Below are positions 1,124-64,000 of a stretch of DNA of 64,000 bases, piece by piece. Position numbers and translations under genes: made by a program. The stretch covers positions 26,179-90,178 of the forward strand of contig JBKCOJ010000007.1 of NCBI GenBank assembly GCA_046309815.1. Direction: 5' to 3'. Within the stretch, counting starts at the first letter, position 1. Each line of letters opens with the position of its first letter. Source of the stretch: Pseudomonadota bacterium (GTDB lineage: Bacteria; Pseudomonadota; Alphaproteobacteria; Paracaedibacterales; CAITNM01). The notes under the pieces are model-generated. The model saw only the letters and a program-made list of their open reading frames with translations. It had not been told where the DNA came from and searched no databases.

Positions 1124-1254
1124 TAGTTGGTGATGTGCTGAATGACTTGGTTAAAGCTTAGGTCAAAATGAGATTTACGTACATAGATAATTATCAACGT
1201 GAGGATGATGAGTTTAATAATAATAGCGATTTTGAGATCTTTGAATTTAGGCAT
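1123..1254 (-). CDS. small hydrophobic ORF (43 aa) translationally coupled to cydA
   Basis: Below the ORF-track size cutoff. It translates as MPKFKDLKIAIIIKLIILTLIIIYVRKSHFDLSFNQVIQHITN, with one predicted TM helix. Its TAA overlaps the cydA ATG in the sequence TAATG. Confidence 0.3.
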   Translation of the reverse strand: MPKFKDLKIAIIIKLIILTLIIIYVRKSHFDLSFNQVIQHITN

Positions 1255-1300
1255 GTTTTTAAAGCTTGTTAAGACATTTTAAGTCACTATATTACTTAAT

Positions 1301-2965
1301 ATGAATGTATTTTTTGGTATTCTACAAATGGTTTTTAGATTCTTGTGTTTATTGGGGATAGTAAGCTTTAAAATCTTTTCTGTATCATCACCAGAAACAA
1401 TAGAGCTTTGGAATAAAGCCGCGGAAGCTGTTGAATATAACCATTGCTACTGGTATATGGAAACCATTAAGGAGCTTAATAGCACGTTGTCAGGAAAAGT
1501 TGCTCCTGCAGATTTTTTAAGCGTGCATCAATTACCTAAAAGAGAATGGGAATCTGATTCAAGTTTTCAAGAAAGGTTAAAAATTCCTCAATTTTTTTGT
1601 GAAATTGGATGGGAAGGCACCTTATTTTTAATGATCGTACACCAATCTTTTAACGAAATATTTGCTTCAAATAAAGTACCTCCACTTTTGCATCGTCATC
1701 TTAAAGGAAACAAAGATTTTTTGACTAAGCATTTTGTTGATATTCAGCATACAGCTCAAAACGGTCAATTAGGACCAACTCTTTGCTTTATAGCAGCTGG
1801 TGTAGAAAATTCTGTTCATTCTTGGCAGCTTGATTTTATAAATGGTTTTTTCAAATATTGCCAAAAGGAAGGGTTTACTTCATTTGCCAAGTATGTGTTT
1901 GATCACTCTAAAACTTTTTTCACCAATATTACTGATCAATTTCTTTACAGCTTGAGGACAAAATGCATCATCGCTGCTTTAAGAAATCCTAGTTATGGAA
2001 TTAATCCCACAGAGGAAATACGAAATTATCAAAAACTTCACTTAAGACCCGAATATCAAGATGAAATTTTCCAACAATTAGTAGACGCTTTATACTGCAA
2101 ATTAGCTGAACAGGAGAACTATGAATTAATGGATGAAGTGCTGGATGGTTATTCATGGCCACAGCCCTCGACTGATGCAAAAGAATATGCAATGCACAGC
2201 TTGAATCAATCTCTACTTAAGAAAATAGAGCGCAAAAACTATCTGCAAGCTAGAGAAATGTTCGGAAATAGAAACGCATATAGACCATCAGAAAATACCT
2301 TGCATGCTTTTGTTGTAGGTGCAGCACAACATAATAAATGGGATGATGTAGATGACGTATTAGAAAATATGTATAGCGAATCGATCAGAGTGCCTCAACA
2401 CGTAACAGATTTCGTGTTTATTCAATCGATAATATCCGAAAATCCTAAGCATTTTCAGTTGATAACGGGCACCTATCATCTTGGGTATTTAACCGGGGAG
2501 CAATGGATTTATGGACCTCCGTCCCCTGCAGCGTTTGATACGGGATTATTAGAAGCCGTTAAATATAGGCACCAAGGTACATTTGATGTACTTTTAGATG
2601 AGCATGGCGAGCATTTATCAGAAAGTGGATCAAGGGCAGCTTTGGAGCAAGCGGGAAGGCCGACAGAAGTTGTTCGAAGAGCAGATATATTTGATTTATA
2701 TTCACCATTTGATTTATATCTAGCAATCAACCGCATCTTTGAATTTGATGAGAATCATTACCAACAGCGTCTTAAAAGGAAACTTGGAATACCTACAAAC
2801 AGAGAAGAATTAATAAGTATAACAACCTCTGACTCAACAGCGTTCCAGTCAGCTCTCACGCAGAATTTAAGCTCTCTTTATGTTCCTGTTGACGCACAAC
2901 TTACTGCAGAGGCTTTACCTCAGCAGCTCGATTATAATGATGCCAAGTCCAGCAGAGAAAATTAA
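1301..2965 (+). CDS. hypothetical protein with N-terminal signal/anchor; possible PPR/TPR-like helical repeats in the middle
   Basis: 554-aa ORF with hydrophobic N-terminus MNVFFGILQMVFRFLCLLGIVSF. It contains about 35-aa helical units, e.g. KNYLQAREMFGNRNAYRPSENTLHAFVVGAAQH / NKWDDVDDVLENMYSESIRVPQHVTDFVFIQSIIS. I recognised no family. Confidence 0.55.
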   Translation: MNVFFGILQMVFRFLCLLGIVSFKIFSVSSPETIELWNKAAEAVEYNHCYWYMETIKELNSTLSGKVAPADFLSVHQLPKREWESDSSFQERLKIPQFFCEIGWEGTLFLMIVHQSFNEIFASNKVPPLLHRHLKGNKDFLTKHFVDIQHTAQNGQLGPTLCFIAAGVENSVHSWQLDFINGFFKYCQKEGFTSFAKYVFDHSKTFFTNITDQFLYSLRTKCIIAALRNPSYGINPTEEIRNYQKLHLRPEYQDEIFQQLVDALYCKLAEQENYELMDEVLDGYSWPQPSTDAKEYAMHSLNQSLLKKIERKNYLQAREMFGNRNAYRPSENTLHAFVVGAAQHNKWDDVDDVLENMYSESIRVPQHVTDFVFIQSIISENPKHFQLITGTYHLGYLTGEQWIYGPPSPAAFDTGLLEAVKYRHQGTFDVLLDEHGEHLSESGSRAALEQAGRPTEVVRRADIFDLYSPFDLYLAINRIFEFDENHYQQRLKRKLGIPTNREELISITTSDSTAFQSALTQNLSSLYVPVDAQLTAEALPQQLDYNDAKSSREN

Positions 2966-4162
2966 GGCAAGTGCGACATTGCCCCCTACCACTGTGTACG
3001 GAGCGGTGCCGCCTACTTGACGCATTTTATAGGCCACCGCCGCTGGCATAATCACCGCTAAAATACTGAGGGCGATTGCGGCGTATCCTAAGGCGATGAT
3101 GAAACCATTTGGATAGAACAACGCAAAAAATAGCGGCGGCAAGAAGGTAAGAAGTGACGTTTGAAAGCGCTGACCTTTTGTGTCGCCTTTTTTAAGACTT
3201 TCAGCCAAGTAATCGAATAGGCCGATAGCCACGCCTAAGAAGGACGTTGATACACCAAAGAACGCAAAGATATTTGAGAAGTATTCAATGGTGCTGCCTT
3301 GCGTTGCCTGATTTAAATGGCTAATAAAGGAAGCAACGTTTTGTTCTTCTGCGGTTGTTGTAATGGTTGGCAATACACCAAGGGTAACGACTTGCCAGAC
3401 CAAGTAGATAAATAATGGCGTAACGCTACCAACGATAATCACTTTTCGTAAATAATTAACGTTAGGCCCGACATAGTTAATGAGTGTTGGAATACTTCCA
3501 TGAAAACCAAAAGACGTAAAAAATAGGGGAATCGCCAGCCATGTAGCGCTTGGCTCACTGCCCGGGTGCATTAAGCACTCGGATTTCACAAATGGGATCA
3601 GGGCAAATACCAAGCAAAAGAAAATGCTGACTTTGACAAATAACAAAAAGCGGTTTGCGTAATCGACATGTTTCGTGGAGGAATACACAACAACGCCAAG
3701 ACCTGCAGCAAATGCGGCAGCCATTGTTTGGAATGGAACTGAAATGCCTGCAATACTTTCAATGCCTGCTTTTAAAAACGAGGCTCCTCCAGTTGTGTAA
3801 GCAGCAAGCAGCGCATAGAACAAAAGACCAATACTTGCGGAAGCGATCCATTTGCCAACTTTTCCAAAAATTTTTTCGGCTAAATAAGAAATGCTATAGC
3901 CACCACCCATGCGCAGGTTGATTTCAAGGCTAACAAGCGCTGCAAAGCAGGTGAACATCCACATACCAATAAGCAGTAATGAGCTATACAAGAAACCTGC
4001 TTTTCCAGAGGTCATAGGCAGCGCTAGCATACCTGCTCCAAATGTCGTGCCGGCAACAATTAAGGTTGCTCCGATGAATCGGCTTTTTGAGGAGTCGTGC
4101 GCACTTCCTTTTTTATTACGATTTTGGGCAACGGGTTTGGTGGATTTTGCGGCGCTTTTCAT
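2915..4162 (-). CDS. aromatic amino acid permease (Tyr/Trp-type, HAAAP family)
   Basis: 415-aa polytopic membrane protein. The N-terminal motif FIGATLIVAGTTFGAGMLALPMTSGKAGF is typical of TyrP/Mtr-type permeases. Its 3' end overlaps the convergent 1301..2965 ORF by 51 nt. Confidence 0.78.
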   Translation of the reverse strand: MKSAAKSTKPVAQNRNKKGSAHDSSKSRFIGATLIVAGTTFGAGMLALPMTSGKAGFLYSSLLLIGMWMFTCFAALVSLEINLRMGGGYSISYLAEKIFGKVGKWIASASIGLLFYALLAAYTTGGASFLKAGIESIAGISVPFQTMAAAFAAGLGVVVYSSTKHVDYANRFLLFVKVSIFFCLVFALIPFVKSECLMHPGSEPSATWLAIPLFFTSFGFHGSIPTLINYVGPNVNYLRKVIIVGSVTPLFIYLVWQVVTLGVLPTITTTAEEQNVASFISHLNQATQGSTIEYFSNIFAFFGVSTSFLGVAIGLFDYLAESLKKGDTKGQRFQTSLLTFLPPLFFALFYPNGFIIALGYAAIALSILAVIMPAAVAYKMRQVGGTAPYTVVGGNVALALIFSAGLGIIIIELLR

Positions 4163-4235: not shown

Positions 4236-4640
4236 ATGAAGCTTGTCGATTTTTGGGCGTGTTTACCTGGAGAGTGGTTATTTGAACGAAATATCTCAAA
4301 TGGTCTACATCAAACTGGTGTTTTAAAAGTAGAAGAGATCGACTCTACTCTTTGTCAGGCTCATGAAACTGGCAGATATACTGATAGCCATCAAGTGTTT
4401 TTTCGAAATTATCGCTTTGAATGGGCGAATGATTCTCTCAACATTTTTGGTGAGAACCCTAAGGAGGGGTTTGTGCTGCTGCATGAGTTAAGCGATGCAA
4501 AAAAATGGCACGTGCATAAGTGCAATAAGGATTTTTATGAATTTGAATTACATGAGGTTGGCGAGCAACGTTGGCACACGGTTATTACTATTACCGGACC
4601 AAAAAAGGCCTTGCAGTTGGTGACAGAATATAAGAGATAG
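4236..4640 (+). CDS. hypothetical cytosolic protein
   Basis: 134-aa ORF with no signal peptide. The motif HKCNKDFYEFEL...W..VITITGPKK vaguely recalls small beta-barrel DUF proteins. No secure assignment. Confidence 0.5.
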   Translation: MKLVDFWACLPGEWLFERNISNGLHQTGVLKVEEIDSTLCQAHETGRYTDSHQVFFRNYRFEWANDSLNIFGENPKEGFVLLHELSDAKKWHVHKCNKDFYEFELHEVGEQRWHTVITITGPKKALQLVTEYKR

Positions 4641-5408: not shown

Positions 5409-5446
5409 CACTCATTGGGCCCCGTTTTTCAACGGGGCGTCTATTT
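5409..5446 (+). repeat. dispersed hairpin repeat, H1 subtype (also terminator-like between convergent genes)
   Basis: cactcattgggccccgtttttcaacggggcgtctattt. Confidence 0.7.
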
Positions 5447-6019: not shown

Positions 6020-6133
6020 TCTTTATCCTTAATCTTTTCTAGTTCTTCCCACTAGACAAAGGTTTTTGTTCTGTCCCAGAATGACAAAGAGTACTTAAAA
6101 ATTTATTAAAAAGCTAATTTTCAAGGAACGCGC

Positions 6134-25391: not shown

Positions 25392-26279
25392 CTAGGCCTG
25401 GTCTTGCACGCTTTCGCTTGATATACTCATTCCTTCAATAGCGGTTACGATATCGTCCATTTCTTTTCCTGTTGATGCTACTTCATCAGATCTAGCTGGT
25501 GTCACTGAATTAGGTCTTGATACATTCATTCCTTCAATACCCGTTATGATATCGTCAATTTCGTTTCCTATTGATACTACTTTATCAGGTTTATTAGGTA
25601 CTGAAAGAAGAGTTTCTCCTTCAGCCTGCGGAGCAAGCCCATTTATCTCTATTCGTCGTCCATGGATGCTTGCTCTAATCTCTTCTGCAAATCTCTGTCG
25701 TATTACTGCACTAGGTCTAGCTGGTGTCCCTGAATTAGGTACTGAAAAAAGAGCGTCTCCTGCAGCCTGCGGAGCAAGCTCATTTAAAAAATTCTCCATT
25801 TGCCCATTGATGCTTGCTCTAATCTCTTCTGCAAATCCCTGCGCTACTGCATTAGACATAGCTGGTGTCATCGTACTGAGTCCAGGGTTTCCCAGTAATT
25901 CCGCAAAAGCACTTCTAAATTGCCCTCTTGATGCCGCTGTATCAGGTCTAGCTGGTGTCACTGAATTAGGTACTGAAAAAAGGTCTTCTCCTTCAGCCTG
26001 CGGAGCAAGTCCATTTAGAAAATCCCCTACTCTAGCTGGCGCTAAATAATTATCCACTACTTCCTGTATACGAACTGCTTGCTCTCTTTGCACTCTAGCT
26101 ACTACCCGTTGTATAAGCCTAACTTCTTGCCTTGTTGGCCCTGATATATTCGTTCTTCCAATACCAGATGCGAAATCTTCAAATTCACGTCTTTCTCCAG
26201 CCTTGGCGGGCGACATATAAACCGAGCAGTAAAATATGATCAACATCAAAAATTTGGTTTGCATAATACTATCCTTCAT
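25392..26279 (-). CDS. secreted tandem-repeat protein (about 76-aa period)
   Basis: Signal peptide MKDSIMQTKFLMLIIFYCSVYMSPAKA. Repeats LNGLAPQAEGEDLFSVPNSVTPARPD / LNELAPQAAGDALFSVPNSGTPARPS / INGLAPQAEGETLLSVPNKPD. The nucleotide period is about 228 (25493, 25720, 25949). Confidence 0.62.
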   Translation of the reverse strand: MKDSIMQTKFLMLIIFYCSVYMSPAKAGERREFEDFASGIGRTNISGPTRQEVRLIQRVVARVQREQAVRIQEVVDNYLAPARVGDFLNGLAPQAEGEDLFSVPNSVTPARPDTAASRGQFRSAFAELLGNPGLSTMTPAMSNAVAQGFAEEIRASINGQMENFLNELAPQAAGDALFSVPNSGTPARPSAVIRQRFAEEIRASIHGRRIEINGLAPQAEGETLLSVPNKPDKVVSIGNEIDDIITGIEGMNVSRPNSVTPARSDEVASTGKEMDDIVTAIEGMSISSESVQDQA

Positions 26280-59789: not shown

Positions 59790-60230
59790 ATGCGCTTAGC
59801 CCTTTATCAACCTGAGATTCCACAAAACGTCGGCACGCTGATCAGGCTTGGCGCGTGTGTAGGTGTGCCGATTGATATTATTGAACCTACGGGTTTTGTG
59901 TGGAGCGATAAGCATTTGAAACGTGCGGGCATGGATTACGTAGAGTTAGCTAATGTTAAGCGTATTGAGAGTTGGGATGCATACAAAACATTGAATGATT
60001 CTAAGCGTATTGTTTTGATTGATACTAAAGCCGATACAATTTTTTGGGATTTGAAGTTTAAACCTGATGATATTTTGATGTTGGGTAAGGAAAGTTCGGG
60101 CGTACCGGATGAAGTGTTTGCGGAAATTCCGCATCGCGTACGAATTCCCATGTTGCCTGACAGACGCTCTTTGAATATGGCTATTGCCGGTGCTATGGTG
60201 CTTGCAGAAAGTTTACGCCAAACTAGATAA
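59790..60230 (+). CDS. trmL: tRNA (cytidine/uridine34-2'-O)-methyltransferase
   Basis: SpoU/TrmL: LYQPEIPQNVGTLIRLGA, LGKESSGVPDEV and RSLNMAIAGAMVLAE. Confidence 0.88.
   Translation: MRLALYQPEIPQNVGTLIRLGACVGVPIDIIEPTGFVWSDKHLKRAGMDYVELANVKRIESWDAYKTLNDSKRIVLIDTKADTIFWDLKFKPDDILMLGKESSGVPDEVFAEIPHRVRIPMLPDRRSLNMAIAGAMVLAESLRQTR
60189..60220 (+). repeat. 32-nt perfect direct repeat, left copy (3' end of trmL)
   Basis: ggtgctatggtgcttgcagaaagtttacgcca is identical to 60631..60662. Confidence 0.95.
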
Positions 60231-60269
60231 CAGCACGATACAGAATATTTTATTTAAGAGAAAGCTTTT

Positions 60270-60491
60270 ATGTGTAAATTATTTTTAGGGATCTTTTTAT
60301 TGAGCGCATGCGCTGCGGGATTTTCAACAGACATGGCGGCAGTTGGGCAAGAAATGGCGTTAGAGAATGCTGAAATGGTTGCTGAAGGAATTGTCGATGA
60401 AGTAACCAAAGACAAATATCCTGATCAGCAAGATGAAGATTCTGATAAATCAGAAGCAGAAAAGCCTGCCAAAAAGAATGAAGTAAATTAA
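60270..60491 (+). CDS. small acidic lipoprotein
   Basis: MCKLFLGIFLLSAC has lipobox LSAC. It lies inside the segment bracketed by the 32-nt direct repeat. Confidence 0.45.
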   Translation: MCKLFLGIFLLSACAAGFSTDMAAVGQEMALENAEMVAEGIVDEVTKDKYPDQQDEDSDKSEAEKPAKKNEVN

Positions 60492-60559
60492 TACGTCGGC
60501 GTTTGCGTCTCTCCCCAAAAAAAATGTTGCGGAATCAGCTTTGCAATAGCGATATTACC

Positions 60560-60596
60560 CACTGAATACCGTTCTTCAACGGGACGTCGTCTATTT
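60560..60596 (+). repeat. dispersed hairpin repeat, H1 subtype
   Basis: cactgaataccgttcttcaacgggacgtcgtctattt. Confidence 0.7.
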
Positions 60597-60630
60597 AGAA
60601 GGGTTGAACTGCTTGAACCAAGTTATTACG

Positions 60631-60662
60631 GGTGCTATGGTGCTTGCAGAAAGTTTACGCCA
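60631..60662 (+). repeat. 32-nt perfect direct repeat, right copy (5' end of hemF)
   Basis: Identical to 60189..60220. The flanking tattRcS upstream is also similar. Confidence 0.95.
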
Positions 60663-61531
60663 GGTTCGATGTGAGCATCCCTCCCTTTTATGCTGATGAA
60701 TTGCACGCGTGGTATTCAGATTTACAAAATCAAATTTGCCATGCTTTAGAAACGATTGAACAAGAATCGTTAGCACTACCACTGTATGATCAATGGCAAC
60801 CCGAGACGTTTGAAAAACGCAGTTGGGACTATAGCCAATCGGGTGGCGGGCAAATGCGGGTTTTGCAAAACGGTCGTGTGTTTGAAAAGGCCGGCGTGAA
60901 TGTTTCATGCGTATGGGGCGAATTTTCTAAAGAATTTGCGAAAGAAATTCCCGGTGCTGAAGAAGATCCGCGCTTTTGGGCAAGTGGAATATCGCTGGTG
61001 ATTCATCCACGGAATCCTTATGTTCCTATTGTACACATGAATACGCGCCACATTGTCACCACAAAATCATGGTTTGGTGGAGGAGCAGATTTAACGCCGA
61101 GCATGCCGCTTGAAGAAGATACAGCAGCGTTTCATCAAGCATTTAAAGAGTGCTGTGATAGCCATGATGCAGGGTATTATGATCGATTTAAGCAATGGTG
61201 CGATGAGTATTTTTATTTGAAGCATCGTAAAGAAATGCGCGGTATTGGGGGCATTTTCTATGATTATGTCAATACAGGCGATTTTGAAGCGGATAAGGCT
61301 TTCAATAAAAGTGTGGGAGAAACTTTTCTTAAGGTTTATCCAAAAATTGTCCGGCGAAGAATGGAAATGACGTGGGGAGATGTGGAAACGCAAAAGCTTC
61401 AGCATAAGCGTAGTCGCTATGTAGAATTCAATTTAATTTATGATCGGGGCACACATTTTGGATTAAAAACCGGAGGGAATACCGATGCGATTTTGATGTC
61501 GATGCCCCCATCCGCAAGCTGGGCTGCTTAG
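60632..61531 (+). CDS. hemF: oxygen-dependent coproporphyrinogen III oxidase
   Basis: RSWDYSQSGGGQMRVLQNGRVFEKAGVNVS, HPRNPYVPIVHMN and GGIFYD motifs. The exact start is uncertain. In-frame GTG/TTG candidates lie at 60632 and 60644 inside the duplicated 32-mer and at 60674 just downstream of it. Confidence 0.88.
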   Translation: MLWCLQKVYARFDVSIPPFYADELHAWYSDLQNQICHALETIEQESLALPLYDQWQPETFEKRSWDYSQSGGGQMRVLQNGRVFEKAGVNVSCVWGEFSKEFAKEIPGAEEDPRFWASGISLVIHPRNPYVPIVHMNTRHIVTTKSWFGGGADLTPSMPLEEDTAAFHQAFKECCDSHDAGYYDRFKQWCDEYFYLKHRKEMRGIGGIFYDYVNTGDFEADKAFNKSVGETFLKVYPKIVRRRMEMTWGDVETQKLQHKRSRYVEFNLIYDRGTHFGLKTGGNTDAILMSMPPSASWAA

Positions 61532-61586: not shown

Positions 61587-62441
61587 TTAGGCTGCTGCAG
61601 CTACTGATCCTTCAGCTGGAGCTTCTATAGGTTTTGGTATTTTAGTATCAATCGTGCTACTCTCTGGAACTGCTGCTTCTATAGCTTTTTCAGGTGCTTT
61701 AGCTTCAGCTGCTGGCGTCTCTTTAGCATCGCTGCCTACTGCAGGAGCTTCTGGTGTTTTTTCTGCAGAAGAAGACATCGACGCTGAAGCAAGAGCATTG
61801 ACTATACTCGCTGCTGGCTTTTCTTCTTTATGCTCAACCTTAGTTTCTTCTTTTTTAGGCTCTTCTTTAGCTTCAGCTGGTTTTGTCTCTTCCTTTTTTT
61901 CTTCTTTTTTAGGTTCTGGAGCTGGGGTTGGCTTTACGGCAGTGTCTGCTTTTCCTTGCGCTTTCAAAAAGCCTTCCACTTCGTCTTTCGTTGGGCAAAT
62001 GTTAAAAACTAAACAATCTCCATGCCTTTCAATAACCGCATATAATTTTTTATCCCCCGCTTGGAAATCAAAATCTACCGGGCCATTACCCCCCGCCAAT
62101 TTTTCTTCTGCTGACGTCATGACAGGAGCTAAAACCGGTTCAACTGCTTGACCAATTTTATCTTTCTTTGCGTGCGCTTCGCGCTTGTAAGCTCCATCTG
62201 ACTGCTTTTTCAAAACAACCACATAACTTTGATCATCTGTTTCAATTTCAGGCAGCTTGTCATCTTTTTTTTGCTGCTTTTCGTTGATTTCCTTTAGAGC
62301 ATCTGATTCCGAATTCTTAAAAGCTTTTTCTATCATTTCAGCACGCTGCGCTAAAGTCGAAAGGCCGGCAAAACCGTCGCTTATAGAAGCAAGCAATAGA
62401 CTTATAAGAATTTTTGATGTCATAACTAAAGAAATCTCCAA
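61587..62441 (-). CDS. hypothetical secreted protein with Lys/Glu/Pro/Ala-rich low-complexity C-terminal half
   Basis: Signal-like MTSKILISLLLASISDGFAG (alternative start 62423). PTPAPEPKKEEKKEETKPAEAKEEPKKEETK tract. Confidence 0.5.
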   Translation of the reverse strand: MEISLVMTSKILISLLLASISDGFAGLSTLAQRAEMIEKAFKNSESDALKEINEKQQKKDDKLPEIETDDQSYVVVLKKQSDGAYKREAHAKKDKIGQAVEPVLAPVMTSAEEKLAGGNGPVDFDFQAGDKKLYAVIERHGDCLVFNICPTKDEVEGFLKAQGKADTAVKPTPAPEPKKEEKKEETKPAEAKEEPKKEETKVEHKEEKPAASIVNALASASMSSSAEKTPEAPAVGSDAKETPAAEAKAPEKAIEAAVPESSTIDTKIPKPIEAPAEGSVAAAA

Positions 62442-62673: not shown

Positions 62674-64000
62674 TTAGAGTATTCTACGCCTTTTTGTAGC
62701 TGGATATTCCAGCGCCTTCTCTGCTTGGTATCGAGTGATTTCTGCTTGGTATTGATTAGGATGTAGGTGGGCTAATCGCTTTATCAAGCAATGGACTGCA
62801 TTATTATTCGATACAAATTGCAATATTGGGTCTGTAAAATGTTGCATAAGAGTGATAAGATTTTGCGACGGCACCTTATTTAATTCGAACATCACGTTAC
62901 ATTTATCTGCTCCATCCATGTTCAGGGAGAGGCGATTTAATGCTGTTTCAAAATCGGAGATTAAATGGCCTTCTGATACCTGGCTTAATCCACTAATCAT
63001 CCAACATTTATTATGAGGTGACATGTTCAGTGTGAGGCGATTCACAGCGGCTTCAAATTCCGATAATTTTTGTTTTGTCCCATCTAAAGCTATAATCACG
63101 TCTATTTTATCTGCTCCACTCATGTCCTCTGAGAGGCGATTAAAAGTTGCTTCAAACTCCGGTAAATCAACTTCTGAAATGTCCCTTAATATATCAACAG
63201 CTGAACTTTGATACTCTCTGTCTTCTTCGTTTATACCCTGTAAGAAGCGACTAGCAACTTTTTGTAAACGTATAGCCCTATCAATTTCTGCTTGGTATTG
63301 ATTAGGTTGCATAGGCGCTAATCGTTTTATCAACTCAGTAACTTTTTCTGTATCTCTACTTAATACAATTTGCAGTACTGAATCTGTAAAATGTTGCATA
63401 AGAGCAGTAAAATTTTCTACTGGCACCTTATTTAATGTATCAATTATCTCACCTTTATCCTCTCCATCCATATTCAATGAGAAGCGATTCACAGCAGCTT
63501 CAAATTCAGGTGTTAAACGCTTTGTTGGTACATCGCGTAATCTAAAAAATATGTGACGTCTATCCTTTTTTCTTATATTCAGTGAGAAGCGATTCACAGC
63601 AGCTTCAAATTCTGGTAATTCCTTTTTTTGCACCTTTGCTACTAAGGTTTTAAACAAGAAACCTTTATCGTCTTCTCTCATTCCCTTTAAAAGTCGACGT
63701 GCAGCGCCTGCAACTATTTGTAAATCTTGGTCTGTTGACAAGAGACCTAATGCCTCGATCATGCATGCTATGGTATTTGCTCTCATGCCCGGTGAGAGTC
63801 TCTTTACGATTTTTTTAAATTTTGGGGTGAAACGCTCGGTAGGTATTTCTTTTAGTACGCCAAGCATCCTGGCTTCTTCTGCTGCAGACATATCTGCAGG
63901 GATACCTAATGAAGAGTAACGAGTATATGCTAAACATTCTTTTGCTTGGGAACATTCTTCTATACTACAAAATACATAAGATAATCCTAAGTTAAGAACT
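62674..64000 (-). CDS. 34-residue helical-repeat protein, family member C (probably continues past the right edge)
   Basis: Units LPEFEAAVNRFSLNIRKKDRRHIFFRLRDVPTKR / LTPEFEAAVNRFSLNMDGEDKGEIIDTLNKVPVEN / LSEFEAAVNRLTLNMSPHNKCWMISGLSQVSEGH. The frame upstream of ATG 63891 stays open to position 64000 (…LGLSYVFCSIEECSQAKECLAYTRYSSLGIPAD-M). Confidence 0.58.
   Translation of the reverse strand, partial: VLNLGLSYVFCSIEECSQAKECLAYTRYSSLGIPADMSAAEEARMLGVLKEIPTERFTPKFKKIVKRLSPGMRANTIACMIEALGLLSTDQDLQIVAGAARRLLKGMREDDKGFLFKTLVAKVQKKELPEFEAAVNRFSLNIRKKDRRHIFFRLRDVPTKRLTPEFEAAVNRFSLNMDGEDKGEIIDTLNKVPVENFTALMQHFTDSVLQIVLSRDTEKVTELIKRLAPMQPNQYQAEIDRAIRLQKVASRFLQGINEEDREYQSSAVDILRDISEVDLPEFEATFNRLSEDMSGADKIDVIIALDGTKQKLSEFEAAVNRLTLNMSPHNKCWMISGLSQVSEGHLISDFETALNRLSLNMDGADKCNVMFELNKVPSQNLITLMQHFTDPILQFVSNNNAVHCLIKRLAHLHPNQYQAEITRYQAEKALEYPATKRRRIL

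Follow-up and report, generated by a model that had tools for sequence, protein, structure and literature searches.

In compact genomes the order of genes is usually assumed to be locked where genes overlap and are co-translated. Overlaps between genes on the same strand arise and shrink by point mutation, through a shift of the stop or the start codon (PMC3887535). A different alteration of a gene end is known from the element e14, which resides in icd. Here the element supplies the last codons of the gene, a 163-bp relic lies at the element's opposite end, and excision restores the gene (PMC6379469, PMC13626634). We analyzed the junction of the genes trmL and hemF in a stretch of 64,000 nucleotides (nt) of contig JBKCOJ010000007.1, which as a whole is called the window in the following. 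The two genes are separated by a small insert that carries an open reading frame (ORF) for a lipoprotein-like protein and a hairpin, and that is flanked by direct repeats of the trmL tail. We consider it likely that this arrangement goes back to a duplicative insertion between two genes which once overlapped, that the insertion is old, and that insertion has recurred at this junction. The closest likeness is to e14, and we return to this comparison at the end.

The 32-nt sequence GGTGCTATGGTGCTTGCAGAAAGTTTACGCCA occurs exactly twice in the window, both times on the + strand and with starts 442 nt apart. A sequence-only reading of this DNA had already described the two perfect copies, and we find them at the positions it gave. 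They are the cores of a longer repeat, as ungapped similarity reaches 65 nt with 78% identity (Table 1). By chance about 1e-10 exact 32-mer pairs would be expected in 64 kb (64000^2/2 x 4^-32). By length the pair ranks fourth among the exact repeats of the window. The longer ones (37754/38899 with 51 nt, 26236-26312/27318-27394, and 25491-25986) fall in adjacent paralogous ORF pairs (36578-37870/38020-39015 and 25392-26279/26495-27361). Collapse or expansion during assembly, which the sequence-only reading had named as a possible source of the repeat, is excluded. Nine contigs, taken from independent ENA, JGI, and NCBI assemblies, agree base for base (100% identity) over the 1,742 nt that begin with the trmL start and end with the hemF stop. 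The tenth contig, L104, differs by 15 single-nucleotide polymorphisms over the trmL-hemF locus and by none in the repeat copies. The repeat is real, non-random, and not an artefact of assembly.

Both flanking genes can be named from their domains. The product of the upstream gene matches SpoU_methylase (PF00588, E=8e-28) over residues 2-138 of its 146 amino acids (aa). It stays below the cut-offs of the TrmL equivalog models (121.7 bits vs 190.6 for TIGR00185 and 120.9 bits vs 282 for NF007683). These models are nonetheless by far its top NCBIfam matches, and its relatives are annotated at source as tRNA (cytidine(34)-2'-O)-methyltransferase. On this basis the protein is best called TrmL-like. 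The downstream gene encodes HemF, with matches to Coprogen_oxidas (PF01218, E=7.5e-101) and to the NCBIfam equivalog NF003727 (384 bits, above the 297-bit cut-off). The G+C content of the window is 40.3%. Its top HemF relatives among the GTDB species representatives are alphaproteobacterial with at most 64% identity, and the named TrmL neighbours come from Candidatus Odyssella, Paracaedibacteraceae, and Ca. Finniella. This points to a protist symbiont of the Holosporales/Paracaedibacteraceae type. The Bodo saltans endosymbiont (1.39 Mb, 40.6% G+C; PMC8163844) is no more than a lead here.

Copy 1 of the repeat encodes the C-terminus of TrmL (GAMVLAESLRQ), which is followed by TR and the stop; the protein of the window ends in GAMVLAESLRQTR. 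Nucleotides 60221-60230 (A ACT AGA TAA) form a new tail of two codons plus stop in place of the ancestral tail of 10 codons. The window shares this left junction (A[CT]T A[AG]A TAA) with two further genomes that carry an insert, L096 and L106. Read in the trmL frame, copy 2 runs on to LNQVITGAMVLAESLRQVRCEHPSLLC and a stop at 60694-60696. TrmL residues 1-144 joined to this tail give exactly 154 aa, and the rebuilt tail resembles the tails of relatives (VRCDHPSLC in P0123, VRYGYPSPLC in L091). Because copy 2 rebuilds a TrmL of 154 aa and stops at this place, we assign the ancestral overlap of trmL and hemF to the 26 nt listed in Table 1. The present TrmL has 146 aa: the last 10 codons are gone and two are gained. 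Thus the view of the sequence-only reading that both genes were kept intact does not hold for trmL.

The relatives without insert show the ancestral state directly. Within the clade of the window, HemF relatives are graded from 67% to 90% identity. Genomes L091, L093, L094, L095, L105, and L110 lack the insert and encode a TrmL of 153-154 aa and a HemF of 285-286 aa; the HemF proteins of L091, L093, L094, L095, and L110 are 78-85% identical to that of the window. The two genes overlap by 26 nt in all of these genomes except L095, where the overlap is 23 nt. An original overlap, guessed at about 30 nt in the sequence-only reading, and a direct junction in relatives without the 442-bp unit are therefore both borne out. 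Linkage of the genes is older still. Of 80 distant alphaproteobacterial hemF loci, 47 have trmL directly upstream on the same strand. The refutation by unlinked genes in relatives, which the sequence-only reading had named beside the artefact, fails as well. The commonest junction outside the clade is a 4-nt overlap of the hemF start and the trmL stop (ATGA/GTGA; 24 of the 47 adjacent pairs). The overlap of 23-26 nt in the clade is a derived extension of trmL from this 4-nt overlap, probably through loss of a stop codon.

Some genomes of the comparison deviate at one of the two genes. In L107 the overlap has been resolved otherwise, with a TrmL of 148 aa, a gap of 24 nt, and no insert. In L093 the product called at 1245-3026 has 593 aa and ends in SpoU_methylase, and either trmL is fused to some 440 upstream codons or the start is mis-called. 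In the JGI contigs L098 (~6043-6047) and L103 (~4351-4355) hemF splits into two overlapping tblastn segments near residue 150. Judged from these alignments, this break is a frameshift, either of a pseudogene or from a sequencing error.

Where hemF starts decides on which side of the start codon the repeat lies. With a start at GTG 60671 the gene callers give a HemF of 286 aa on 10 contigs. Close homologues have 284-286 aa, and L091, L094, and L106 have an ATG at the homologous position. Alignments with distant HemF proteins start 9-14 residues after 60671, and distant HemFs typically have 11 residues before this anchor, which matches a start at 60671. The alternative is that of the sequence-only reading, in which the 32-mer is the old overlap itself and encodes the N-terminus of hemF from GTG 60632 or TTG 60644. 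The frame is indeed open from 60632, and the GTG and TTG codons lie within the repeat. However, relatives without insert share this upstream open frame, and the callers still choose the ATG or GTG homologous to 60671. The length of the close homologues and the N-termini of the distant ones fit the downstream start, and counted from 60671 the old trmL stop gives the overlap of 26 nt. We regard a start within the repeat as very unlikely. hemF most likely starts at GTG 60671 and not at 60632, and therefore the 32-mer lies upstream of hemF and not inside it. The repeat does not supply the coding 5' end of hemF, and the old overlap maps downstream of the repeat.

The present order most probably arose in the following steps. 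In the ancestor of the clade trmL, with about 154 codons, ran 26 nt into hemF. In the lineage of the window a segment with the lipoprotein gene and a terminator-like hairpin was then inserted just upstream of the hemF start codon, and with this insertion no less than 50-65 nt of the trmL tail became duplicated. The resulting order is trmL body, tail copy 1, the new two-codon end with its stop, cargo, relic copy 2, and hemF. Copy 1 completes a shortened but domain-complete TrmL, and copy 2 keeps hemF joined to the approximately 60 nt which always preceded it. Selection may explain why all insertions seen here are duplicative: without a second copy of the trmL tail an insertion would possibly not be viable, as TrmL would need its last helix and hemF its native leader. 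The exact identity over 32 nt is the slowly evolving core of an older and longer duplication. Such an insertion would be reversible, as recombination between the direct repeats would restore the ancestral overlap exactly. The duplication could stem from single-crossover (Campbell-type) integration of a circle carrying the tail, from template switching during replication, or from homology-facilitated illegitimate recombination. Of the earlier proposal of an insertion with duplication of the overlap, one part stands: an insert flanked by a duplicated trmL tail does separate the genes. The 32-mer, however, is not the old overlap.

Table 1. Positions of the features at the trmL-hemF junction, in window coordinates
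Feature	Position	Strand	Basis or remark
trmL (SpoU-family tRNA 2'-O-methyltransferase), 146 aa	59790..60230	+	ORF; Pfam SpoU_methylase; shortened form
Repeat copy 1	60171..60235, exact core 60189-60220	+	functional trmL 3' end
Spacer with Shine-Dalgarno-like AAGAGAAAG before the small ORF	60231..60269	+	sequence
Cargo: orphan ORF of 73 codons for a lipoprotein-like protein with signal peptide, lipobox (L-S-A-C), and acidic tail	60270..60491	+	
Hairpin of the dispersed "H1" family, terminator-like; stem at 60570-60586 followed by TCGTCTATTT	60549..60597	+	terminator-like match
Relic in trmL frame, 30-codon ORF from TTG, ending in LNQVITGAMVLAESLRQVRCEHPSLLC and stop	60604..60696	+	rebuilds the ancestral 154-aa TrmL end
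Repeat copy 2	60613..60677, exact core 60631-60662	+	relic trmL tail, non-coding for TrmL, directly upstream of hemF start
Footprint of the ancestral 26-nt trmL/hemF overlap	60671..60696	+	hemF start to old trmL stop 60694-60696; overlaps of relatives
hemF (oxygen-dependent coproporphyrinogen oxidase), 286 aa, GTG 60671 start	60671..61531	+	Pfam, NCBIfam, gene callers

The small ORF of the insert, which the sequence-only reading had described together with the H1 hairpin, is found as described, with LLSAC in the ORF. Homologues are present at the trmL-hemF junction only, in L096 with 77% and in L106 with 42% identity (pairwise E=3e-10). We found no other homologue among 5.8e9 proteins, nor when 1.84e9 representatives were scanned with HMMER without an index, and no family of Pfam or NCBIfam matches. 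By reading of the pattern [LVI][ASTVI][GAS]C a lipobox is present as MCKLFLGIFLLSAC (L-S-A-C) in the window and in L096, and L106 has LLGTC. AAGGA-like motifs 8-10 nt upstream of the ATG are seen in L096 and L106 as well. The ORF, the lipobox, and the Shine-Dalgarno-like motif are thus maintained in three species. The ratio of nonsynonymous to synonymous substitutions (dN/dS) amounts to 0.37 for the whole ORF and to 0.20 for its core; for trmL and hemF it is 0.06-0.07. By these comparisons the small ORF is a real, selected, and lineage-restricted orphan gene for a putative lipoprotein. Between the window and L096 a run of 70 nt within the ORF (60370-60439) is perfectly identical, with a synonymous divergence (dS) of 0.24 there. 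In trmL and hemF of the same two genomes dS is 0.65-0.90, and the longest identical runs have 45-47 nt. The run suggests an extra constraint at the nucleotide level, perhaps an antisense or RNA element, or a later exchange between the lineages.

The hairpin belongs to a family with seven sites in the window, at 5428, 34444, 34461, 51427, 55600, 55691, and 60575, all on the + strand; by chance 0.28 sites would be expected. The consensus spans about 40 nt (CACTGGAyCCCG..TTC..CGGGrCGTCTAT), and the members mostly follow closely on the 3' ends of + strand genes or lie between two convergent genes. From these positions we class the family as terminator-like or as similar to repetitive extragenic palindromic (REP) elements. 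In L096 the stem of the hairpin shows compensatory changes (CCGTT/AACGG vs CCCGAC/GTCGGG).

The perfect repeat was previously seen as a clean footprint. The distribution of the insert shows that it is not a fresh, clean one. L096 belongs to another species (87% nucleotide identity in trmL and 85% in hemF, 90.6% aa identity in HemF, dS 0.65-0.90) and has the architecture of the window, with a TrmL of 146 aa ending in QTK, an ORF of 73 aa, the hairpin, and the relic tail. L106 has a TrmL of 146 aa ending in QIR, an ORF of 62 aa, and a relic ending in LNVTIAGAMVLAENSRQTENDHPSFLC. The cores of the two copies differ at 6 of 32 positions in L096 and at 7 of 32 in L106. The 32-mer of the window is itself near the ancestral sequence: the single copy of L091 is identical over 29 nt, and copy 2 of L096 differs at 1 nt. 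On this comparison the perfect identity is retention of ancestral sequence and not a sign of recency. Gene conversion possibly helped, but it is not needed since both copies equal the near-ancestral sequence. The insertion event, as dated by these divergences, is old.

In a neighbour-joining tree of TrmL and HemF the window groups with L104, then with L096, and then with L091, each with 100% support. When ordered by HemF identity to the window, the genomes alternate: insert at 100%, insert at 90.6%, empty at 85% (L110), insert at 83% (L106), and empty at 82.5% (L091). Two histories fit this patchiness, inheritance with losses or lateral spread via the homologous flanks. In the second the lipoprotein insert arose once elsewhere, in a QT-type background like that of L106, and reached the ancestor of the window and L096 by homologous recombination through trmL and hemF. 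Besides the patchy order, the tails fit such a transfer, as the 3' flank of copy 1 is of the QT type and the native flank of copy 2 in the window and in L096 of the QV type. The identical run of 70 nt, with its low dS in the ORF core compared with the flanking genes, fits as well. The remainder of the insert, with the signal peptide, the tail of the ORF, and the region after the ORF, however, is as diverged as the flanking genes or more. The tail of TrmL is fast-evolving and across the tree changes among the types QT, QV, QA, and QI; it is too variable and therefore cannot decide between the two histories. Moreover, the position of L106 is poorly supported, and loss by recombination between the repeats would be easy and scarless, so that vertical inheritance with losses fits equally. 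We consider lateral spread possible, yet would not expect it to be the correct history.

A second insertion at the same junction was located by a metagenome scan for the conserved core. In L101 a shortened trmL (ending in LRQVRSSHLI) is followed by a complete gene for an ATPase of 379 aa with the Pfam domains AAA_14 and DUF4143, then by a relic tail and by hemF. The ATPase matches the PADLOC candidate PDC-S01 (E=5.7e-78); its function in defence is a candidate annotation. The unit in L097 (238 nt) is the L101 insert with an internal deletion of 1,074 nt at a 3-nt ATG microhomology (L097, oriented, ~716-720 vs L101 ~174-1250), which leaves a stub ORF of 25 codons of the ATPase gene. In both genomes the relic tail has 81-84 nt and starts at trmL codon 118. 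L105 comes from the JGI sample that also holds L104. On both flanks it is 98.3-98.9% identical to L097 and L101, and it has a single tail, the overlap of 26 nt, and no cargo. One species thus carries empty, full, and deleted alleles, and the insertion is still polymorphic. The empty allele of L105 is compatible with precise excision and equally with a state that was never occupied.

L097 and L105 cluster with L094, which has no insert, at only 52-86% bootstrap, and the two insert-bearing groups of the tree are separated by lineages without insert. Because the cargos, the relic boundaries, and the new TrmL tails all differ, we regard the two events as independent. The relic of the window begins at codon 137 and not at codon 118. 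Nevertheless no more than about 5 nt separate the left junctions of the two events; just upstream of the hemF start, one follows CGCCA in the window and the other CAGGTTC in L097 and L101. Neither cargo was found elsewhere in the approximately 0.9 Mb of fetched DNA.

These observations bear on the origin of the insert. It could be what remains of an element that integrates site-specifically, in the manner of e14 in icd or of the islands in tRNA genes; such an element would have brought its own substitute for the trmL 3' end and integrated at an att core in the trmL tail. Copy 1, with its core and new tail, would then stem from the element, and copy 2 would represent the native end, now displaced. 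The integrase and most of the element would have been deleted later. The architecture is that of e14 in icd (PMC6379469, PMC13626634), and direct repeats like att sites are present, with an exact core of 32 nt within 65 nt in the window and repeats of 81-84 nt in L097 and L101. The exact core with diverged flanks, the closeness of the two left junctions, and the clean presence or absence of the insert within one species would follow naturally. In addition, the 3' flank of copy 1, CAAACTAGATAA, is like QT-type tails elsewhere (CAAACTAAAAATGA in L094), and copy 2 is of the QV type. On the other hand, neither insert contains or adjoins an integrase, recombinase, or transposase, and the cargos have no such Pfam domain; the only ORFs are the lipoprotein of 73 or 62 aa or the AAA_14+DUF4143 ATPase. 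Even the recent, polymorphic insert of 1.3 kb in L101 holds the ATPase gene only. The left boundaries of the relics differ, and the cargo ends share no sequence. The copies of the recent event are nearly identical (2 differences in 84), as expected for the host's own tail and not for a foreign mimic. We therefore judge an integrating element to be an unlikely source.

A simple recent tandem duplication or slippage is extremely unlikely. In this case the intervening DNA would be decayed trmL and hemF, and the small ORF would have formed de novo. Similarity does fade outward from the core on the sides which turned non-functional (the 3' flank of copy 1 and the 5' flank of copy 2), and the small ORF is without homologues outside the locus. 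Yet the insert of 377 nt, the hairpin aside, has no significant blastn or tblastx similarity to other DNA of the window; the best other match is a weak one by tblastx (38344-38466, E=0.004). The event is also not recent, and the fresh event in L101 shows sharp repeat boundaries and a clearly foreign, complete gene. A transposon or a miniature inverted-repeat transposable element (MITE) was rejected as well: the repeats have 50-84 nt, reading of the cargo ends revealed no inverted repeats, and there is no transposase domain.

Duplicative insertion, which we prefer, leaves a relic of trmL in front of hemF, and this relic is conserved. Between the window and L096, positions 60613-60662 are identical at 47 of 50 nt, the adjacent stretch 60492-60601 has 41% identity, and coding DNA 85-87%. 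Because of this difference from the adjoining stretch we take the relic to be under constraint. The relic frame runs open to the old stop from TTG 60604 or 60613; both in the window and in L096 AAGG lies just upstream. An in-frame Met codon of the trmL tail (LNMAIA; window 60619-60621) has been replaced differently in each old relic: where ATG stood, the window has CAA, L096 has CAG, and L106 has GTG. Beside it TTGAAC and ATT are retained. The replacements may reflect selection against initiation at ATG. By reading of the sequence, TTGAAC (60613) and TATGGT (60636-60641) with a spacing of 17 nt resemble a promoter, and a sigma-70 scan of the relic gave no promoter above threshold. A conserved RNA structure at the relic and the hemF start was considered and rejected: there are no covarying pairs in eight species, and the fold of the window sequence is no better than that of shuffled sequences (z=+0.5). 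Rfam families at gathering thresholds were found nowhere in the window.

How hemF could be expressed behind the insert may be envisaged as follows. Since the hairpin after the small ORF probably terminates transcription, hemF would need its own promoter, and this would have to lie in the remaining 85 nt. The relic may carry what hemF needs, be it a weak promoter, a region for ribosome loading, or a short upstream ORF which keeps translational coupling. The last comes into question because hemF is without a clear Shine-Dalgarno sequence in most lineages. The ancestral hemF was probably coupled translationally to trmL, and the open frame of the relic could preserve this coupling.

Several points weigh against an old duplicative insertion with a functional relic. 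No insertion step has been observed. No donor of either cargo was found in the ~0.9 Mb of fetched DNA, and none for the small ORF in the window or among the 5.8e9 and 1.84e9 proteins searched. The insert is patchy, as the empty L091 and L110 are as close to the window as the insert-bearing L106 or closer; L106 is placed with only 42% bootstrap, and losses or lateral transfer must be assumed. No empty-site allele of the window species is present among the 10 contigs. A search of the protein database likewise gave no TrmL of 154 aa at 97% identity or above, but it also missed the window's own TrmL of 146 aa and is for this reason weak evidence. By exact look-up this 146-aa protein is present on 23 contigs, yet it was unlisted in the homology search with the 154-aa query. 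The start of hemF was placed by homology. Synonymous conservation in the trmL tail is only modestly raised (codon identity 0.61-0.66 vs 0.51 overall) and is no outlier. Finally, the promoter-like match in the relic is weak (8/12), and a conserved RNA structure was not detected.

As a wider proposal, the overlap of trmL and hemF might be a recurrent and reversible landing pad in these small genomes of the endosymbiont type. Single accessory genes, such as the orphan lipoprotein gene and the defence-candidate ATPase gene, would enter as units of tail and cargo. The tail would serve as substrate for excision and as translated upstream ORF or promoter, by which hemF stays expressed without a Shine-Dalgarno sequence. 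Entry would proceed without a dedicated recombinase, or by an unrecognised mechanism which breaks within about 5 nt of one position. We put this forward tentatively and think that the combined proposal is more probably wrong than right by a clear measure. If true, this would give new genes a general way into pairs of overlapping, translationally coupled genes.

Two neighbouring ORFs downstream of hemF lie on the - strand. The first (61587-62441) encodes a low-complexity protein of 284 aa, rich in K, E, A, and P, with periodic repeats of 27 nt. The second (62674-63891) encodes a protein of 405 aa with internal repeats (PEFEAAVNRFSLNM motifs) and has exact repeats of 22-30 nt at 62738/63284, 62831/63383, and 63478/63583. 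Relatives carry different ORFs at the homologous position.

The locus suggests, in natural sequence, how the lock of overlapping genes opens: the gene end is duplicated, the upstream gene gains a stop, and the downstream gene keeps its leader. With two events, different cargos, and one of them still polymorphic, the process and its reversal are open to direct study. The lipoprotein gene is a dated example of an orphan gene under purifying selection in a reduced genome. The conserved relic, moreover, makes the expression of hemF without a clear ribosome-binding site testable.

Compared with known systems the junction shares features with several of them. In our literature search none of the 4,407 papers matching two of the terms contained the phrase "duplication of the overlap". 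As after insertion of a transposon, a MITE, or an insertion sequence (IS), direct repeats of target sequence flank the insert; they are, however, 50-84 nt long and not 2-14 nt, and terminal inverted repeats and a transposase are absent. As in hotspots for accessory and defence genes, different cargos are seen at one conserved junction, one of them a match to PDC-S01, with presence and absence within one species. Unlike in the usual hotspots, the site lies inside a gene overlap and not between genes, each gain would need duplication of a gene end, and only two types of cargo are seen, each a single gene. The 26-nt overlap of the clade, as a derived extension of the 4-nt overlap, fits the known evolution of overlaps by loss of a stop codon. 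In contrast to that mode, the overlap here would have been resolved by duplication of the shared region around an insertion.

The likeness is greatest to e14 and phage 21 in icd of E. coli and to the islands that integrate into the 3' ends of genes and tRNA genes and bring a replacement end, where the insert is flanked by direct repeats which derive from the target gene's 3' end. As in icd, the copy adjoining the body of the gene makes it complete and functional, with a C-terminus that is slightly altered; a relic 3' fragment is left on the far side, and removal would restore the gene. The empty allele of L105 and the occupied allele of L101 parallel strains without and with e14. Unlike e14, the inserts have no integrase or other recombinase, and the cargo is one small gene in 0.4-1.3 kb compared with 15 kb for e14. 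In the recent event of L101 the copy adjacent to the gene looks derived from the host and not from the element. Finally, the relic here is not a dead pseudogene; it is the conserved native upstream context, and the former overlap partner, of an essential downstream gene.

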